Of a DNA stretch of 44,220 nucleotides, positions 8,564-14,509 are shown in pieces (within the stretch, counting starts at the first letter, position 1; each line of letters starts with the position of its first letter). Under the pieces are notes generated by a model. It worked only from the letters and a program-made list of their open reading frames with translations, ran no database searches and was not told where the DNA came from. Source of the stretch: Akkermansiaceae bacterium (GTDB lineage: Bacteria > Verrucomicrobiota > Verrucomicrobiia > Verrucomicrobiales > Akkermansiaceae); contig JBNABE010000001.1 of assembly GCA_049631945.1 (NCBI GenBank), positions 1-44,220 on the forward strand, given 5' to 3'. A program made the translations under genes and the position numbers.

Positions 8564-11500
8564 TTATTGGCAAGCTTCACACTCGCCACCGTTGATCATG
8601 GCATCGATACTACATGCCTGCTTTTCAGCCGCTGTGTATTCCTTCTTCTGCTCGGCTACTTCCCCGGCTACACCGCGGACCTCCTTCTTCACGGAAATCG
8701 TTGATTTCTCGATGTTGGATGCCTGCAGGGTGCGGAGGTAATAAGTGGTCTTAAGTCCCGTATGCCATGCATGACGATACATATGAGAAAGGGTTTTCAT
8801 GTCTGGCTCGGCCAAGAACAGATTCACACTTTGTGACTGGTCAATCCATTTTTGTCTGCGTGCAGCGGCATCAATGATCGCCTTGTAGCCTACGCTGAAG
8901 ACGGTTTGATGCTTCTCCTTCAGGCTTTCTGGGATGTCTTCAATGTCGCTGAGTTCACCATCAAAGTATTTTAGCTGGTCGAGCATGTCTTGATTCCAGA
9001 GGCCCTCTTTCTTCAGGTCATTTACGAGCTCACGGTTGAGCACAATAAAGTCACCAGAGAGGTTCGACTTCACATACAGGTTCTTGTAATTCGGCTCAAT
9101 ACATGGAGTTGTGCCCATGATATTGGAAATCGTCGCCGTGGGTGCAATAGCAAGCACGTTGGAGTTGCGCATGCCGTGTTTGGCGATCTTCTCACGCAGG
9201 TGAGTCCAATCCATTTTAGCTCCGCGAGGCACATCAACGTCAACACCACGTTCATCTTCGAGGAGATCAACAGTGTCTTGTGGCAGAATACCACGATCCC
9301 ACTTTGATCCCTTGTAGCTGGAATAGGTTCCAGACTCAGCAGCAAGGTCAGATGATGCATTGTAAGCATAGTAAGCGATGGCCTCCATGAACTCGTCATT
9401 GAAGTCAACCGCTGCATCCGATGCAAATGCGATGCCTTTCTTATAGAGTGCGTTTTGTAGCCCCATCACACCCATACCGATCGGGCGGTGACGACTGTTT
9501 GCCGTCTTGGCCGCTTCTGTTGGGTAGAAGTTAATATCAATGACATTATCGAGCGCACGGATGGCAACGGTAATGGTCTCTTTGAGCATCTCGTGATCCA
9601 GCGAGCCATCAGCTGTAATGTGAGTATCAAGCACAACCGAGCCAAGGTTACATACAGCAGTCTCTTCGTCTGAGGTATTGAGTGTGATCTCAGTGCAAAG
9701 ATTACTGGAGTGAATCACTCCACAATGATCTTGCGGGCTACGGAGGTTACAAGGATCTTTAAAGGTGATCCATGGGTGGCCGGTTTCGAAGATCATTTTC
9801 AGCATGCCCTTCCAAAGCTCGATCGCAGGAACTTTACGCGTCCAAATTTTACCCTCCTCAGCCATTTTCTCATACTCTTCATAGCGAAGCTCAAATGCCT
9901 TACCATATAAATCGTGAAGATCCGGTGTCTCATTGGTGCGGAACAAAGACCATTCTTGGCGAGCCTCCATACGCTTCATAAATAGGTCTGGAATCCAGTT
10001 TGCCGTATTCATGTCATGACAGCGGCGACGCTCGTCTCCTGTGTTCTTGCGAAGCTCAAGAAAGTCTTCAATATCGTTGTGCCAGGACTCAAGATAAGCA
10101 CAGCCAGAACCGCGGCGTTTGCCACCTTGGTTGACAGCAACTAGCTGGTCATTGTGCAACTTGAGGAATGGGATGATGCCTTGTGACTCGCCATTAGTGC
10201 CTTGGATGTAACCACCCGTGCCACGAACTGCTGTCCAAGAACCTCCCAGACCGCCAGCCCACTTACTGAGATATGCGTTATCTGCAATACCACGCTGCAT
10301 GATTGACTCGATGGAATCATCTACCTTGTAGAGATAGCATGATGATAGCTGTGAGTGTAGCGTGCCTGAGTTAAACAAAGTCGGCGTGCTCGAACAGAAG
10401 CGACGGCCCTTGTAAAGTGAGTAAAGACGAATCACCCAGTCCTCACGATCCTCTTTCTCCGCACGGAATAGGCCCATCGCCACACGCATCCAGAAGAACT
10501 GAGGGGTCTCAAGGCGACGTTGTTTGTCCCCAGTCTTATCGACAATGAGGTAACGATCGTAGAGTGTTTGAATACCTAGGTAATCGAAATCAAGGTCAGC
10601 TGTTGGGTCAAGTGCATCTGCGAGCTTATCGATGTCGTATTGAGCAACAACATCTGGGGAAATGCGCTTAATTTTGACGCCATGCTTAAGATATTTATTG
10701 AAGTGTTCGCGGTGTGCCACCTTGAGGGCACGAATTCCATCATTGAGAATATTCCAGTCGAGCACTTCCTCATAAATGTAACTAAGTAGAATACGGCCAG
10801 CAAACTTGGCAAAATCTGCATCACGCTCGATGAGAGACTTGGCGTTAAGAATCACAGTCGACTTTAGAGCTTCACGTGTAATTTCAGCTCCAATAGAACG
10901 GCGTAGCTCTTGCTCAATTTCCTGCTCGCTGAGGCAAAGACTTAAACCAATAGAAGCAAACGAAATACGCTTTTTAAGCTCAGTGCCATCCCAGAACTCA
11001 GTTCCTCCATCCTGCTCGGTAACCACCACCATGGACTCCTGGTTGGGATCCTCCGCTGGCTCCTCGTCGATACGCATTTGAGCACGTTTAGCACGATAGA
11101 GAATATAAGCTTCAGCGGCTTTGAAATAGCCTTGGCGCATGAGCTCCTCTTGGACGAGGTCTTGCACGTTTTCGATATGCGCAAATGCTGAATCACCATT
11201 CCTGATGCTCTCCGTAACCCCGTGCGCTACTTTCACAGCTGCCTCGGGGTCCTCCTTGATGGATAAAAATGCTTTTCTGACCGCAATCTCAATCTTTGTC
11301 TGGCTCCATGGCACAACGTTGCCATTTCGACGAATCAGCCTCACGGGCATTGTCTGTGGCTCTTCGGAAACAATAACCTCACCATTTTTTTCCAAGGAGC
11401 GGGAAAACACCAATGACTTGGCAACATCGTGCGCATCATTCTCAATCAGTGCCTTCTCAATCAGCAAGTAAAGATCATTACGAGACAGGCGGAGCTGACC

Positions 11501-11836
11501 ACCTTCATGAACTTGCTCCGTAAGGGACTTGGCCACACTGTTGGCAACATTCGATACGAAGTTGCGGTTCTCCTCATTGAAGATCTTCTCCTCCTGCTCT
11601 TGGCGAGAAATCAAAAGGTCGGTAAGCGCAACACCGATCGTGTCTGCAACTTTAGCGAGTGATAATTCTTCTTCCTCTTTTCCCCGGGTGACGAGAATTT
11701 GAGGAACACGGTCAGCAGTTTGCTCACCGAGGACAGCACGCCAATCAAAACGATCAGTATTTTCGGTGGATGCAGCACGGTCTGTGATGACTTTTTTAAG
11801 AGCGAGATCTTCTTCTAGAGAGATGGAGCGATACAT
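8564..11836 (-). CDS. nrdA: Class I ribonucleotide reductase alpha subunit with extended, apparently multi-ATP-cone N-terminus
   Basis: SSTPTLFNSG, LSSCYL, SSNLCTEI (thiyl Cys), AVCNLGS, AIAPTATIS, KTTYYLR, C-terminal CEACQ. Confidence 0.96.
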   Translation of the reverse strand: MYRSISLEEDLALKKVITDRAASTENTDRFDWRAVLGEQTADRVPQILVTRGKEEEELSLAKVADTIGVALTDLLISRQEQEEKIFNEENRNFVSNVANSVAKSLTEQVHEGGQLRLSRNDLYLLIEKALIENDAHDVAKSLVFSRSLEKNGEVIVSEEPQTMPVRLIRRNGNVVPWSQTKIEIAVRKAFLSIKEDPEAAVKVAHGVTESIRNGDSAFAHIENVQDLVQEELMRQGYFKAAEAYILYRAKRAQMRIDEEPAEDPNQESMVVVTEQDGGTEFWDGTELKKRISFASIGLSLCLSEQEIEQELRRSIGAEITREALKSTVILNAKSLIERDADFAKFAGRILLSYIYEEVLDWNILNDGIRALKVAHREHFNKYLKHGVKIKRISPDVVAQYDIDKLADALDPTADLDFDYLGIQTLYDRYLIVDKTGDKQRRLETPQFFWMRVAMGLFRAEKEDREDWVIRLYSLYKGRRFCSSTPTLFNSGTLHSQLSSCYLYKVDDSIESIMQRGIADNAYLSKWAGGLGGSWTAVRGTGGYIQGTNGESQGIIPFLKLHNDQLVAVNQGGKRRGSGCAYLESWHNDIEDFLELRKNTGDERRRCHDMNTANWIPDLFMKRMEARQEWSLFRTNETPDLHDLYGKAFELRYEEYEKMAEEGKIWTRKVPAIELWKGMLKMIFETGHPWITFKDPCNLRSPQDHCGVIHSSNLCTEITLNTSDEETAVCNLGSVVLDTHITADGSLDHEMLKETITVAIRALDNVIDINFYPTEAAKTANSRHRPIGMGVMGLQNALYKKGIAFASDAAVDFNDEFMEAIAYYAYNASSDLAAESGTYSSYKGSKWDRGILPQDTVDLLEDERGVDVDVPRGAKMDWTHLREKIAKHGMRNSNVLAIAPTATISNIMGTTPCIEPNYKNLYVKSNLSGDFIVLNRELVNDLKKEGLWNQDMLDQLKYFDGELSDIEDIPESLKEKHQTVFSVGYKAIIDAAARRQKWIDQSQSVNLFLAEPDMKTLSHMYRHAWHTGLKTTYYLRTLQASNIEKSTISVKKEVRGVAGEVAEQKKEYTAAEKQACSIDAMINGGECEACQ

Positions 11837-11902
11837 GGGCGCAGGTTATTCTATGGTGTTTTTGTTATAAGTTATAAAGATGATTGTTAAATCAAGGGGG
11901 TG

Positions 11903-11937
11903 TTCGTCTCAGGCCGGATATGCCGACCCGAGACGAA
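11903..11937 (-). other. Intercistronic stem-loop between nrdB and nrdA
   Basis: Minus strand TTCGTCTCGGGTCGG-CATAT-CCGGCCTGAGACGAA, 15 bp stem with G-U pairs, no 3' U-tract. Confidence 0.6.
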
Positions 11938-11950
11938 AAAAGTCGATGGA

Positions 11951-13027
11951 TTAGAGCTCGTCGTCGTCGATACTGCCGAGTGCTGTCGATTTTTGATACT
12001 CGGTGACGCGACCTTCAAAAAAGTTTTGCTCTTTTTTGATGTCCATCATTTCAGCAAGCCAAGGGAATGGGTTTTCGATGTTGCCTTTCAGTGGCTCGAG
12101 ACCGCATGTCTCAAGACGGCGATCGGCAATAAAGTCAATATACTGTTCGAAGTCTGCTAAGTTGAGGCCAACGGACGAAACAGGCAGGCAATCACGAATG
12201 AAGTTTTTCTCAAGCTTGAGAGCTTCTGCCATCGTATCACGCAGCTCATTTTTAAACTCATCCGTCCAAATTTCAGGGTTCTCGTTGATGAGATCCATCA
12301 GTAAATTGCGTAAAAGTTCGATATGATTGGATTCATCGCGCAAGGTGTAGCGGAACATCTGGCCAATTCCTGGGAATTTGTTCTGGCGATAGAGGCTGAG
12401 AATCATGCCAAACAATCCATAGAACTGGGTTCCCTCCATGCACTGACCAAAGATGAAGATATTGCGGGCAAGCGCCTGCTTGTTTTCGACAAGTGACATA
12501 TCCATGTCGCGTCTCAGTGAGCGGCTATTCGATACCACAAAGTTTGTTTTTTCCTGCACGGTCTGAACGCCTTCGAAAATAGCTTCGCATTCATGCGGGT
12601 TGAGACCTAATGAAGAGACCATGTATACCAATGAATCGGCATGGATATTCTCTTCATGCGCATGACGTCGGAAAACAAGCTCTAGCTCAGGTGCGGTCAC
12701 TTGATCTCGGATAACGTGAATCATATTGTCGCCCACAATGCCTTCCGCGGCAGAAAAATAGCCAATGCCCATTTTGATAATCCAACGCTCCACATCGGAA
12801 ATTTCATCTGAGCGCCACTGTTCGACGTCCTTCTGCATTGGGATATCCTCTGGCTCCCAGTGGTTGGCACGCATGTCGGAATAGATGTCCCATGCCCATG
12901 GGTATTTGAGCGGCAAGAGGCCGAAGCCACTGATCTTATCTCCTCCAATAACACGTTTGGACTCTAGGTTTTTTTTAGCTTTTGCCTCTTCAAGCGGAAT
13001 TGTTAAATCATCAAGTGTAGCATTCAT
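11951..13027 (-). CDS. nrdB: Ribonucleotide reductase beta subunit, class Ic-type (Tyr-less, likely Mn/Fe)
   Basis: Ligands E95, E126/H129, E198, E232/H235; Leu133 at the radical Tyr position; W57; C-terminal NFFEGRVTEY. Confidence 0.92.
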   Translation of the reverse strand: MNATLDDLTIPLEEAKAKKNLESKRVIGGDKISGFGLLPLKYPWAWDIYSDMRANHWEPEDIPMQKDVEQWRSDEISDVERWIIKMGIGYFSAAEGIVGDNMIHVIRDQVTAPELELVFRRHAHEENIHADSLVYMVSSLGLNPHECEAIFEGVQTVQEKTNFVVSNSRSLRRDMDMSLVENKQALARNIFIFGQCMEGTQFYGLFGMILSLYRQNKFPGIGQMFRYTLRDESNHIELLRNLLMDLINENPEIWTDEFKNELRDTMAEALKLEKNFIRDCLPVSSVGLNLADFEQYIDFIADRRLETCGLEPLKGNIENPFPWLAEMMDIKKEQNFFEGRVTEYQKSTALGSIDDDEL

Positions 13028-13167
13028 TCGTTTAGGGTGTTCGTTGTATGTTAGTTAGTTGTTGGCGGAGGGAAGTTGTTCGTTGTTTTGAGGTCTTTTT
13101 CTAAATCTAGCTGGTCAGAAGTATTTCAGCTTACTGTAGCATCATGAATGCCACATTGGTTAGCATT

Positions 13168-14226
13168 TTAGAGATCGTCGTCTTCGAAGCTGGTCGCAAG
13201 CGATGCACTACTGGCATGCAAAGGCTCTGATGATGTAAGGTGAATCTGTTCATCCAGCCAAGGGAATGGACTGGTGGCATGATGGAATTGGCGCTGCAGG
13301 CCACAGGCTGCAAGTCGATTGTCGGCGAGATACTCAATATATTTGCTGAGTGCTTCAGGATCCAGACCTGCTGCAGCCACTGGAAGCGTAGTGATAAGAT
13401 CTTGTTCCATTTTTACTGCCTTGAGCATGTAATCAATAAGCTCTTGCTGGAATGAGCTTGTCCATGCTTCTGGGTTTTCTTCAGCCAGCTCTTTGATTAA
13501 CTTGTCGAATAAACTAATACGGAAGGAAACATCTTGCAGTAACTTGCTAAATATCTCGCCAGATCCGGGAAGCTTGTTCTGTGCCGCTAGTGAGAAAATC
13601 GAAGCCCACAGAGAGAAATATTGCGTTCCCTCCATACATTGACTCATCAGGAAAATGTTGCGCACAATACCCTGTTTGTTTTCTAAGATAGTTGTGTCTG
13701 TGTCGCGATCAATTGGACTGAGATTGTCAGTCATAAATTGCTGCTTGGCAGCCATTGCAGGAGTGTTGGCAAGTGCCGAGCATTCCATTGGATTGATCGA
13801 AAGAGAACCGTGCAGGTAGACAAGAATGTCACTGCGAGTGTTTTCCTCATGAACAAAACGACCGAATACAAGCTTGAGCTCAGGAGCAGTCAAAAGGTCA
13901 CGAATGGTGTAAATCCCCCCTGATTGTGCAATTTCTTGAGACTTGGCGAAAGCACCCAAAGCTACTTTGTACAACATTTGACTTGGTTCATCTAGATTAG
14001 CCCACTGGGCAATGTCGGTCTGCACAGATGTCTCTCCTGGCTCCCAATGAGAATTTTTCATCTCTTTGTAGAGCGCATATGCCCATGTGTATTTTAGAGG
14101 CAAGATATTGAAGAACATCGAATTCCGACCATTGATCACTTTCTTTGCGGCGTAAGCCTCCTCTGCTTTCTCACGATCAAGGTTAAAAGTACGCTCGCCA
14201 AGTTTGATGCTTATTGTGTCTGCCAT
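13168..14226 (-). CDS. NrdB paralogue lacking most metal ligands (putative pseudo-beta / beta' subunit)
   Basis: Nearly colinear with adjacent NrdB (LPLKY.WA, HWEP, TAPEL.LVF, HEEN, QCMEGTQ, QNK.PG, PFPWL, acidic C-terminal end) but with Q97, R131, V233, R236 at ligand positions. Confidence 0.88.
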   Translation of the reverse strand: MADTISIKLGERTFNLDREKAEEAYAAKKVINGRNSMFFNILPLKYTWAYALYKEMKNSHWEPGETSVQTDIAQWANLDEPSQMLYKVALGAFAKSQEIAQSGGIYTIRDLLTAPELKLVFGRFVHEENTRSDILVYLHGSLSINPMECSALANTPAMAAKQQFMTDNLSPIDRDTDTTILENKQGIVRNIFLMSQCMEGTQYFSLWASIFSLAAQNKLPGSGEIFSKLLQDVSFRISLFDKLIKELAEENPEAWTSSFQQELIDYMLKAVKMEQDLITTLPVAAAGLDPEALSKYIEYLADNRLAACGLQRQFHHATSPFPWLDEQIHLTSSEPLHASSASLATSFEDDDL

Positions 14227-14493
14227 TTCAGTAAGGGTTGAGTTGTGAAAAAAAGGTTTCGAAAAAGGTTTCGTTGATGAGTTGAATTTGATTTGTATGC
14301 GATGTTAAGTCTTTAGGAATCAACAACTAGCTGTATTAGATCTGATTTTTTGCGCTTTATTTGGCCCGTTTTGAATCATCATGGTGGGCTCACACAGCTA
14401 CACTTTACGATCGCGCAGCCTGATTATGATGCCAATAAATGAGGGTTTTGGTCAATCAGATTTTGCTCATATAGTATCCACAAATTATTAACA

Positions 14494-14509
14494 ATACAAC
14501 ATGTTGTGG
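14494..14509. promoter_or_regulatory. Putative NrdR box upstream of the nrd operon
   Basis: ATACAACATGTTGTGG, with perfect palindromic core ACAACATGTTGT, fits the NrdR consensus acaCwAtATaTwGtgt. Confidence 0.65.

Follow-up and report, generated by a model that had tools for sequence, protein, structure and literature searches.

Dead ferritin-like paralogues are permanent partners of a dimetal subunit in the sMMO hydroxylase (its beta chain) and in phenylacetyl-CoA epoxidase (PaaC), although these are oxygenases with ancient splits and not ribonucleotide reductases (RNRs). Within RNRs, yeast Rnr4 is reported to lack three iron ligands, to keep the dimer surface and to be required for the activation of Rnr2, the heterodimer being the dominant form (PMC2704937, PMC3824934). 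Class Ie small subunits, as described in PMC8463856, have three Glu replaced, carry a Tyr-derived DOPA radical, need NrdI and are class Ib-like. In bacteria, extra beta copies without a metal site are described in Candidatus Liberibacter asiaticus, where a heterodimer of truncated nrdB products is speculated (PMC5154197). A natural dead beta' partner is already established in yeast. A literature search, for which subscription papers were mostly outside reach and RNR database surveys could list such sequences unremarked, found no description of a full-length bacterial dead beta'.

We analyzed a window of 44,220 nucleotides from an Akkermansiaceae bacterium (GCA_049631945.1, contig JBNABE010000001.1). 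An earlier note on this DNA had proposed that the first gene of its nrd operon encodes a metal-site-dead NrdB paralogue (beta'), which may pair with the adjacent NrdB (beta) as a scaffold, a chaperone or an inhibitor. What is new in this locus is that beta' keeps the ancestral dimer arm and that the adjacent intact NrdB has altered the same arm.

The nrd operon and its metal-site-dead R2 paralogue

The ORF of beta' runs without interruption upstream of nrdB and then nrdA, as had been read before (Table 1). Its domain is PF00268 (E 4.7e-46; 157.8 bits against a cut-off of 33.6), and it shares 39% identity with the adjoining NrdB. An alignment-based model of beta' (pLDDT 87.3) has the ferritin-like R2 fold, with a TM of 0.79 to 4D8F, and its closest fold match is the NrdB of C. 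trachomatis. The adjacent NrdB has the ligands E95, E126, H129, E198, E232 and H235. By the class Ic sequence criteria found in PMC4118035 it is of class Ic type: the first ligand is Glu (E95), there is no radical Tyr (L133), and W57, Y227 and Y344 are the equivalents of W51, Y222 and Y338. In two loci (L063:5468-6594 and L087:5935-7061) an intact-type nrdB is frameshifted near ligand E95 and beta' and nrdA are whole, which is probably a sequencing error. NrdD was not found in the genome of the window (G000), which is 85% complete. Among carriers of the pair, two single-contig genomes have one RNR alpha each, and a second alpha occurs in two of five carriers checked. In NrdA (8564-11836) the Pfam ATP-cone (168-252) is preceded by an additional stretch of about 165 residues, which is also found in relatives and is possibly a degenerate first cone.

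Table 1. Coordinates of the nrd features in the window
Feature	Position	Strand	Remarks
NrdR-box-like palindrome	14494..14509	(-)	~280 nt upstream of beta'
nrdB' (beta')	13168..14226	(-)	352 aa, metal-site-dead R2 paralogue; first gene of the operon
beta' residues 1-62	14041..14226	(-)	ancestral N-terminal dimer arm, almost unchanged in comparison with single-copy NrdBs
Q97	13936..13938	(-)	replaces ligand E95; Q in 64/66 clusters
E128..R131	13834..13845	(-)	first Glu kept, His->Arg; both Gln in the second beta' type
E199	13630..13632	(-)	kept carboxylate; E or D in 78/78 clusters
V233..R236	13519..13530	(-)	replace ligands E232 and H235; R236 in 78/78 clusters, 233 never Glu
nrdB (beta)	11951..13027	(-)	358 aa, intact class Ic-type: six ligands, L133, W57, Y227, Y344, DDDEL end
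beta residues 1-56	12860..13027	(-)	altered N-terminal arm against single-copy NrdBs: F10I, F34G, N36G, I37L, L48I, K53R
beta R120	12668..12670	(-)	Gly in single-copy NrdBs and in beta' (G122); predicted packing against beta' 125-129 near the two-fold
nrdA (alpha)	8564..11836	(-)	1090 aa, with ATP cone; sole class I/II RNR large subunit found in G000

The ligand changes of beta' agreed with the earlier reading, E95/E126/H129/E198/E232/H235 of NrdB facing Q97/E128/R131/E199/V233/R236 (motif numbering). Likewise, beta' has no NFFEGRVTEY, and it retains LPLKY.WA, HWEP, PFPWL and a DDDL end. The best 120 of 1259 protein matches comprised 66 with Q/E/R/E/x/R, 12 with G/Q/Q/E/x/R (a second beta' type) and 42 intact. 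Counts of beta' clusters include P0067 (585 aa), which looks like a beta' fragment continuing into unrelated sequence, and P0062, which has a frameshifted tail. Nearly all of the 66 related clusters have Q/E/R/E/(V,I,T,A)/R, with H129R in 66/66, H235R in 66/66 and E95Q in 64/66, so that the ligand pattern is not a matter of chance.

Two residue claims had to be revised. The change of RDE to QDV is seen in the beta' of the window, but Arg230 to Gln is not conserved among beta' clusters: position 230 is G in 32, S in 12, Q in 6, K in 5, R in 4 and another residue in 7 of the 66, and R in 12/12 clusters of the second type. Leu135 had been pointed out as a missing radical Tyr in beta'. As a loss of beta' this does not hold, since the adjacent intact NrdB has Leu133 at that position, facing F127 of C. 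trachomatis; a Leu common to both copies is a class Ic-type trait and not a loss by beta'.

An additional loss concerns the equivalent of Y222, which in class Ic helps to reduce the Mn(IV)/Fe(IV) intermediate according to PMC4118035. This residue, Y227 in NrdB, is Lys (K228) in the beta' of the window, and it is Tyr in 1 of 78 beta' clusters versus all 42 intact clusters. The tail after PFPWL mostly has 28 residues in beta' instead of 34, with the motif of the Y356/Y338-equivalent deleted, and it ends in DDDL in 72 of 78 clusters. Of the residues found in an active class Ic R2, beta' therefore has neither the set of four Glu and two His ligands nor the Y356/Y338- and Y222-equivalents. Position 98, Gly in intact NrdBs, is E or D in 74 of 78 beta' clusters, and W61, H126, E127 and D232 are invariant or nearly so.

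The earlier suggestion of a charge-compensated, plugged site received support from covariation: E128 and R131 change jointly to Gln in the second type, where E199 and R236 stay. The invariant H235R (78/78), the acidic residue at 199 and the joint switch at E128/R131 fit a charge-paired filling of the site, as far as aligned residues can tell.

RNA-library contigs of a close relative (about 91% alike; four RNA runs from one study) cover nrdB', nrdB and nrdA, in line with expression of the operon. One contig of 5785 nt spans 8589-14296 and in two runs contigs start at the nrdA stop, neither strand nor a single transcript being deducible from such contigs; a fifth run, probably DNA, was left out. 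A control stretch in the RNA runs had patchy cover with empty bins. The palindrome ahead of beta' resembles what we take to be the NrdR box consensus. With a pattern tuned after this site had been seen, which gives 26 matches in the 2.03-Mb genome, NrdR-box-like sites were found within 500 nt upstream of 24 of 29 beta' loci of the genus versus 0 of 27 nrdB genes paired in those loci. An nrdR gene is present in G000. A scan for promoters and terminators stayed at chance level (6 versus 9.5 expected).

Dimer arm and body in the two copies

Single-copy NrdBs allowed the changes in the two copies to be assigned. Of 264 columns conserved in 48 single-copy NrdBs, 98 were lost by beta' only and 17 by paired beta only, and 13 of these 17 lie within the first 55 residues. 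Each change in the altered arm is derived and has reached fixation among the paired NrdBs (at least 95% of 34). Beyond the arm, beta has also fixed G120R. When interface zones were drawn, after the data had been seen and with related sequences that are not independent, the single-copy consensus was retained at arm interface columns by beta' at 0.93 versus 0.51 in paired NrdBs, and at body interface columns by beta' at 0.30 versus 0.91 in beta. Losses of paired beta are enriched at the interface (16/72 versus 19/192, p 0.013). Near-invariant beta' residues are enriched at the predicted interface as well (37/63 versus 102/352 overall, p 6e-8), where they belong mostly to the arm and the central helix; beta' losses are not significantly depleted there (32/72 versus 107/192, p 0.13).

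Modeling of the beta-beta' complex, which had been put forward as a check, gave 0.86 versus 0.01 for the best control; the complex passes with its controls, though likeness to solved beta2 (R2) or Rnr2-Rnr4 dimers could explain the pass. Of 157 solved pairs, 116 reach the mark used for complex models, as do 2 of 215 mismatched ones. Contacts agreed between runs to at least 72%, with a partner pLDDT of at least 83, and the model was used mainly as the source of the interface residue list. The predicted interface takes in beta helix 92-104, with ligand E95, and beta' residues 98 and 126. Read from the residue lists (25 contact pairs), the beta' arm would pair with beta helix 92-104.

Because each arm meets the body of the partner in a two-fold dimer, we infer that half of the ancestral interface survives only as the beta' arm on the beta body. 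This half-interface needs the beta' arm, and an altered-arm beta is therefore predicted to be unable to stand alone.

Conservation, co-occurrence and recurrence in Verrucomicrobiota

In the loci examined, gene neighborhoods are consistent with this prediction, which holds throughout. A search with the altered-arm query gave 160 loci (the best 80 of 595 plus the best 80 of 565 candidates). All 24 altered-arm NrdB loci among them have beta' or its 3' end upstream, and a dead copy adjoins none of the 135 ancestral-arm NrdB loci, 116 of which have at least 1.3 kb upstream. One further locus has only beta', at a contig end.

Full-length beta' without an internal stop is present in 27 of 30 same-genus genomes. 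In the other three, one beta' is cut by a contig end, G026 shows no more of the gene than its 3' end, where a contig begins, and G025 has no match to either subunit; G025 and G026 were not counted as losses for these reasons. Wherever a same-genus contig reaches, nrdB follows directly after beta' and then nrdA, and the Q/R/x/R pattern is kept in relatives with position 233 varying between V, I, T and A; both had been named as checks and both came out as predicted. The third such check, dN/dS, points to purifying selection, with values for beta' of 0.01-0.19. Its pairwise median is 0.089 and its maximum 0.19, with a median of 0.050 for beta, in the 48 of 325 pairs that could be used, as dS was saturated or outside 0.1-2 in 277. 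The second beta' type, found in 8 of 19 genomes of one genus, has dN/dS of 0.04-0.09.

Three genera in all have kept beta'. Among carriers of the pair, Rubritalea profundi, Rubritalea marina and Persicirhabdus sediminis are named, and the named proteins close to beta' point to Akkermansiaceae, probably Oceaniferula and kin. In a sample of 401 genomes of the phylum, 101 had a match, and two adjacent copies occurred only in G000 and two genomes of genus g76. Five other genomes of the family gave extra matches, with ligands read for all but four copies. Some are duplicates of intact-like sequence on separate contigs and the rest are fragments or distant R2s, and none adjoins nrdB. In genus g3, the genomes searched had no R2 match or at most a weak one (E about 1e-22) and thus seem to be without a class Ic-type NrdB of this kind.

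In trees, beta' forms one clade (support 100) and paired beta another (99), and both have the same three-group internal order. A common origin of the two appears in the best tree with a support of 27. In the genus with both states, NrdAs form one clade (100) beside a single NrdB or a pair alike, so that, next to one kind of alpha, the pair and the single NrdB are exchanged for each other as whole units. An arm-based tree (80 columns; three rows with incomplete arms dropped) nests beta' among Akkermansiaceae NrdBs (95), apart from other dead copies. The whole-length tree places all dead copies together (98, with a long-branch warning), and since the arm-based tree separates them we read this grouping as probable long-branch attraction. 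For the window type and for g76, the live partner falls within the lineage of its host. Together with the separation in the arm-based tree, this makes at least three origins likely, although the whole-length grouping leaves the number unproven.

One of the other forms is a tandem fusion. Eight of the 16 matches in a search for longer proteins are fusion clusters of 751-790 aa (P0122-P0129; loci L244-L254 and L264-L270; P0124 is named Prosthecobacter sp.) with a linker of about 45-70 aa. Their N-domain has intact ligands and an altered arm. Their C-domain is dead, with RDRKEY or PxRKEY at the ligand positions; it keeps the ancestral arm, lacks NFFEG and ends in an acidic tail, which the live half does not have. 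Fusions occur in 11 of 105 genomes of genus g16 as extra copies, away from nrdA in the seven loci that were read. Each of the 11 genomes also holds another nrdB match, which in the three that were read is an ordinary nrdB-nrdA. As accessory genes that do not adjoin nrdA in those seven loci, in genomes with another nrdB match, the fusions may differ in role from the operon pair. The matches P0130-P0135 were rejected as fusions: they are intein-bearing intact NrdBs of Verrucomicrobiota type, in which some 330 aa, bounded by C and N and intein-like by eye, are inserted immediately behind the RDE ligand motif.

A tandem nrdB pair lies directly before nrdA in two of nine g76 genomes (L239:5131-7532 and L240:6893-9423; G528 and G694). 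Here the arm of the first copy is altered, and the second copy has six ligands and the ancestral arm and has lost NFFEG and the Y222-equivalent. By its sequence features this pair looks like an intermediate stage, and a beta' with six ligands suggests that the interface split can precede ligand loss. A further adjacent dead/live pair was found in 2 of 134 genomes; in G1057 a dead beta' (L301:2-1998, P0153 type) lies directly upstream of an altered-arm intact beta (L301:2306-3322, P0139 type), and the representative P0139 has no acidic tail. Upstream of this pair, on the same strand, is a MerR-type regulator (by eye), possibly LitR/CarH-like. In all of these forms, live copies are 67-85% like single-copy NrdBs in the body versus 47-66% in the arm, and dead copies are the other way round (59-83% in the arm, 32-57% in the body), against averages of 83% and 87% in single copies.

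Other full-length R2 homologues also have 2-4 ligands replaced. There are 13 such representatives (P0174, P0185, P0196, P0214, P0222, P0223, P0228, P0233, P0245, P0255, P0280, P0282 and P0283), mostly of Chlamydia- or Proteobacteria-like lineages. In P0222, about 180 aa are added at the N-terminus as a domain that is TIR-like by eye. A search of the context of the 13 found no viral locus, and plasmid and phage matches were at only 31-46%.

The proposed heterodimer, its alternatives and known systems

We consider it likely that beta' is a dead R2 in an obligate class Ic-type beta-beta' heterodimer with NrdB, acting like yeast Rnr2-Rnr4. After duplication, the metal ligands, the two relay tyrosines and the body of the interface stayed with beta. 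Of the ancestral features beta' has retained the N-terminal arm and the acidic C-terminal end, the others being lost. The enzyme would be alpha2-beta-beta', with one metal cofactor per small-subunit dimer. The beta' arm would wrap the beta body, including the E95 helix, and supply the ancestral contact that beta could no longer make with itself. The other half-interface (altered beta arm on altered beta' body; R120 versus G122) would have co-diverged and would disfavor homodimers. Arg-Glu pairs may fill the empty metal site of beta', and its DDDL tail may provide NrdA with another anchor point. Only beta would take part in radical transfer, as the half-of-sites working of class I enzymes would allow. 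According to PMC8463856, class I RNRs engage just one half of the interface at once, for which class Ic also provides evidence, and the Y356-equivalent is needed or conserved in all characterized class I enzymes; one live beta should thus be enough, and beta' could not relay the radical. The arm/body partition, the strict co-occurrence and the single-chain fusions support the proposal independently of the checks that had been named. Among the three roles that had been left side by side, a scaffold is favored.

It is unlikely, in our judgment, that beta' is instead a transient assembly chaperone that helps apo-beta to fold or to load Mn/Fe and leaves an active alpha2-beta2 enzyme. Such a role has been suggested for yeast Rnr4 (PMC3824934), class Ic subunits are described as prone to mismetallation (PMC8463856), and the modeled interface holds beta helix 92-104 with ligand E95. 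However, the altered arm of beta and R120 at the two-fold argue against a good beta2, beta' has kept its DDDL end in 72 of 78 clusters, and covalent 1:1 fusions exist. We give slightly less credence still to a regulator or decoy that titrates beta, or occupies NrdA through its tail, with beta2 as the working form. A kept tail and lost relay tyrosines would suit it, and a regulatory beta-beta' is speculated in PMC5154197 for the truncated nrdB copies of Liberibacter; but beta' opens the operon behind a shared NrdR-box-like site and is covered by the same RNA contig, so that no separate control of beta' is visible. An inhibitor would also leave unexplained why the arm of the live subunit is altered in each dead-copy lineage and why such an arm is never found without the dead copy.

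It is improbable that beta' is newly active, with one metal bound through E98, E127, E128 and E199 or with an organic radical as in class Ie. The acidic residue at 98 (74/78 clusters) and the (near-)invariance of W61, H126, E127 and D232 might hint at this, but no His is left in the site, a Tyr at the radical position and the Y356-equivalent are absent, residues 98 and 126 fall in the modeled interface, and the replacement sets vary by lineage (QEREVR, GQQEAR, RDRKEY). A decaying duplicate or an assembly artefact has a negligible chance: beta' does evolve faster than beta (median dN/dS 0.089 versus 0.050, 48 pairs), but it is full length without an internal stop in 27 of 30 same-genus genomes and occurs in three genera with dN/dS of at most 0.19, and these intact orthologues and low ratios exclude decay.

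The heterodimer may be one case of a wider pattern, a proposal to which we give about even chances. Class Ic-type RNRs would have split their small subunit into an obligate beta-beta' at least three times in Verrucomicrobiota by the same route, from arm/body partition to a plugged metal site and on to fusion, or to an alpha-anchoring tail left to beta' alone. The products would be natural, genetically hard-wired half-of-sites enzymes with one radical-carrying beta and a partner that serves for anchoring alone, and other bacterial NrdBs with dead ligand sites may also belong here. The split may have been adaptive (half the metal demand, better loading) or a neutral entrenchment. If the proposed heterodimer is real, it is a fixed asymmetric alpha2-beta-beta' enzyme that makes three points directly testable: a need for the halves to alternate, the function of the second beta tail and the dependence of Mn/Fe loading on the partner. 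It would also be a replicated passage from homodimer to heterodimer of which the ancestral state, intermediate, end state and fusion are all living, and Rubritalea marina and Persicirhabdus sediminis are harmless carriers that can be cultured. For annotation, caution is needed, as nrdB' and nrdB are both labeled merely as beta subunit.

With respect to known systems, the Liberibacter copies are 125-aa fragments that match the 3' end of the complete gene at over 99% identity, and for which the available part of PMC5154197 reports no co-evolution with a partner, whereas beta' is a diverged full-length paralogue. Class Ie NrdB/NrdF resembles beta' in the loss of metal-binding Glu from an R2 fold. 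As the earlier note had argued, beta' is nevertheless not of class Ie, because both His are replaced, Leu135 stands at the Tyr position and the Y356-equivalent is absent; no candidate nrdI ORF of at least 80 aa was found between or beside the three genes on their strand.

The best sequence and fold match of both copies is the class Ic NrdB of C. trachomatis (1SYY, 4D8F, 4M1I), with which the intact NrdB shares the Glu first ligand, the non-Tyr radical position and the W51/Y222/Y338 equivalents. C. trachomatis has a single homodimeric beta with Phe127, whereas here Leu occupies that position and there is a second, dead copy. In this second copy the locus resembles Saccharomyces cerevisiae Rnr2-Rnr4 (1JK0, 1SMS), a duplicated R2 with ligands lost and the dimer surface kept: beta' has lost ligands under purifying selection beside an intact paralogue and has a conserved predicted dimer surface. 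It is not an Rnr4 orthologue (E 1e-10 to 1JK0_B versus 5e-37 to the C. trachomatis R2) and does not descend from a eukaryotic class Ia R2, as it nests among Akkermansiaceae NrdBs and its nearest solved relatives are of class Ic. Unlike the yeast pair, the beta' system is bacterial, class Ic-type and operon-encoded, recurs as a fusion and has lost 4-5 ligands plus the motif of the Y356-equivalent. The N-terminal arm differs as well, being kept by beta' and altered in beta, whereas Rnr4 has a long terminal deletion.
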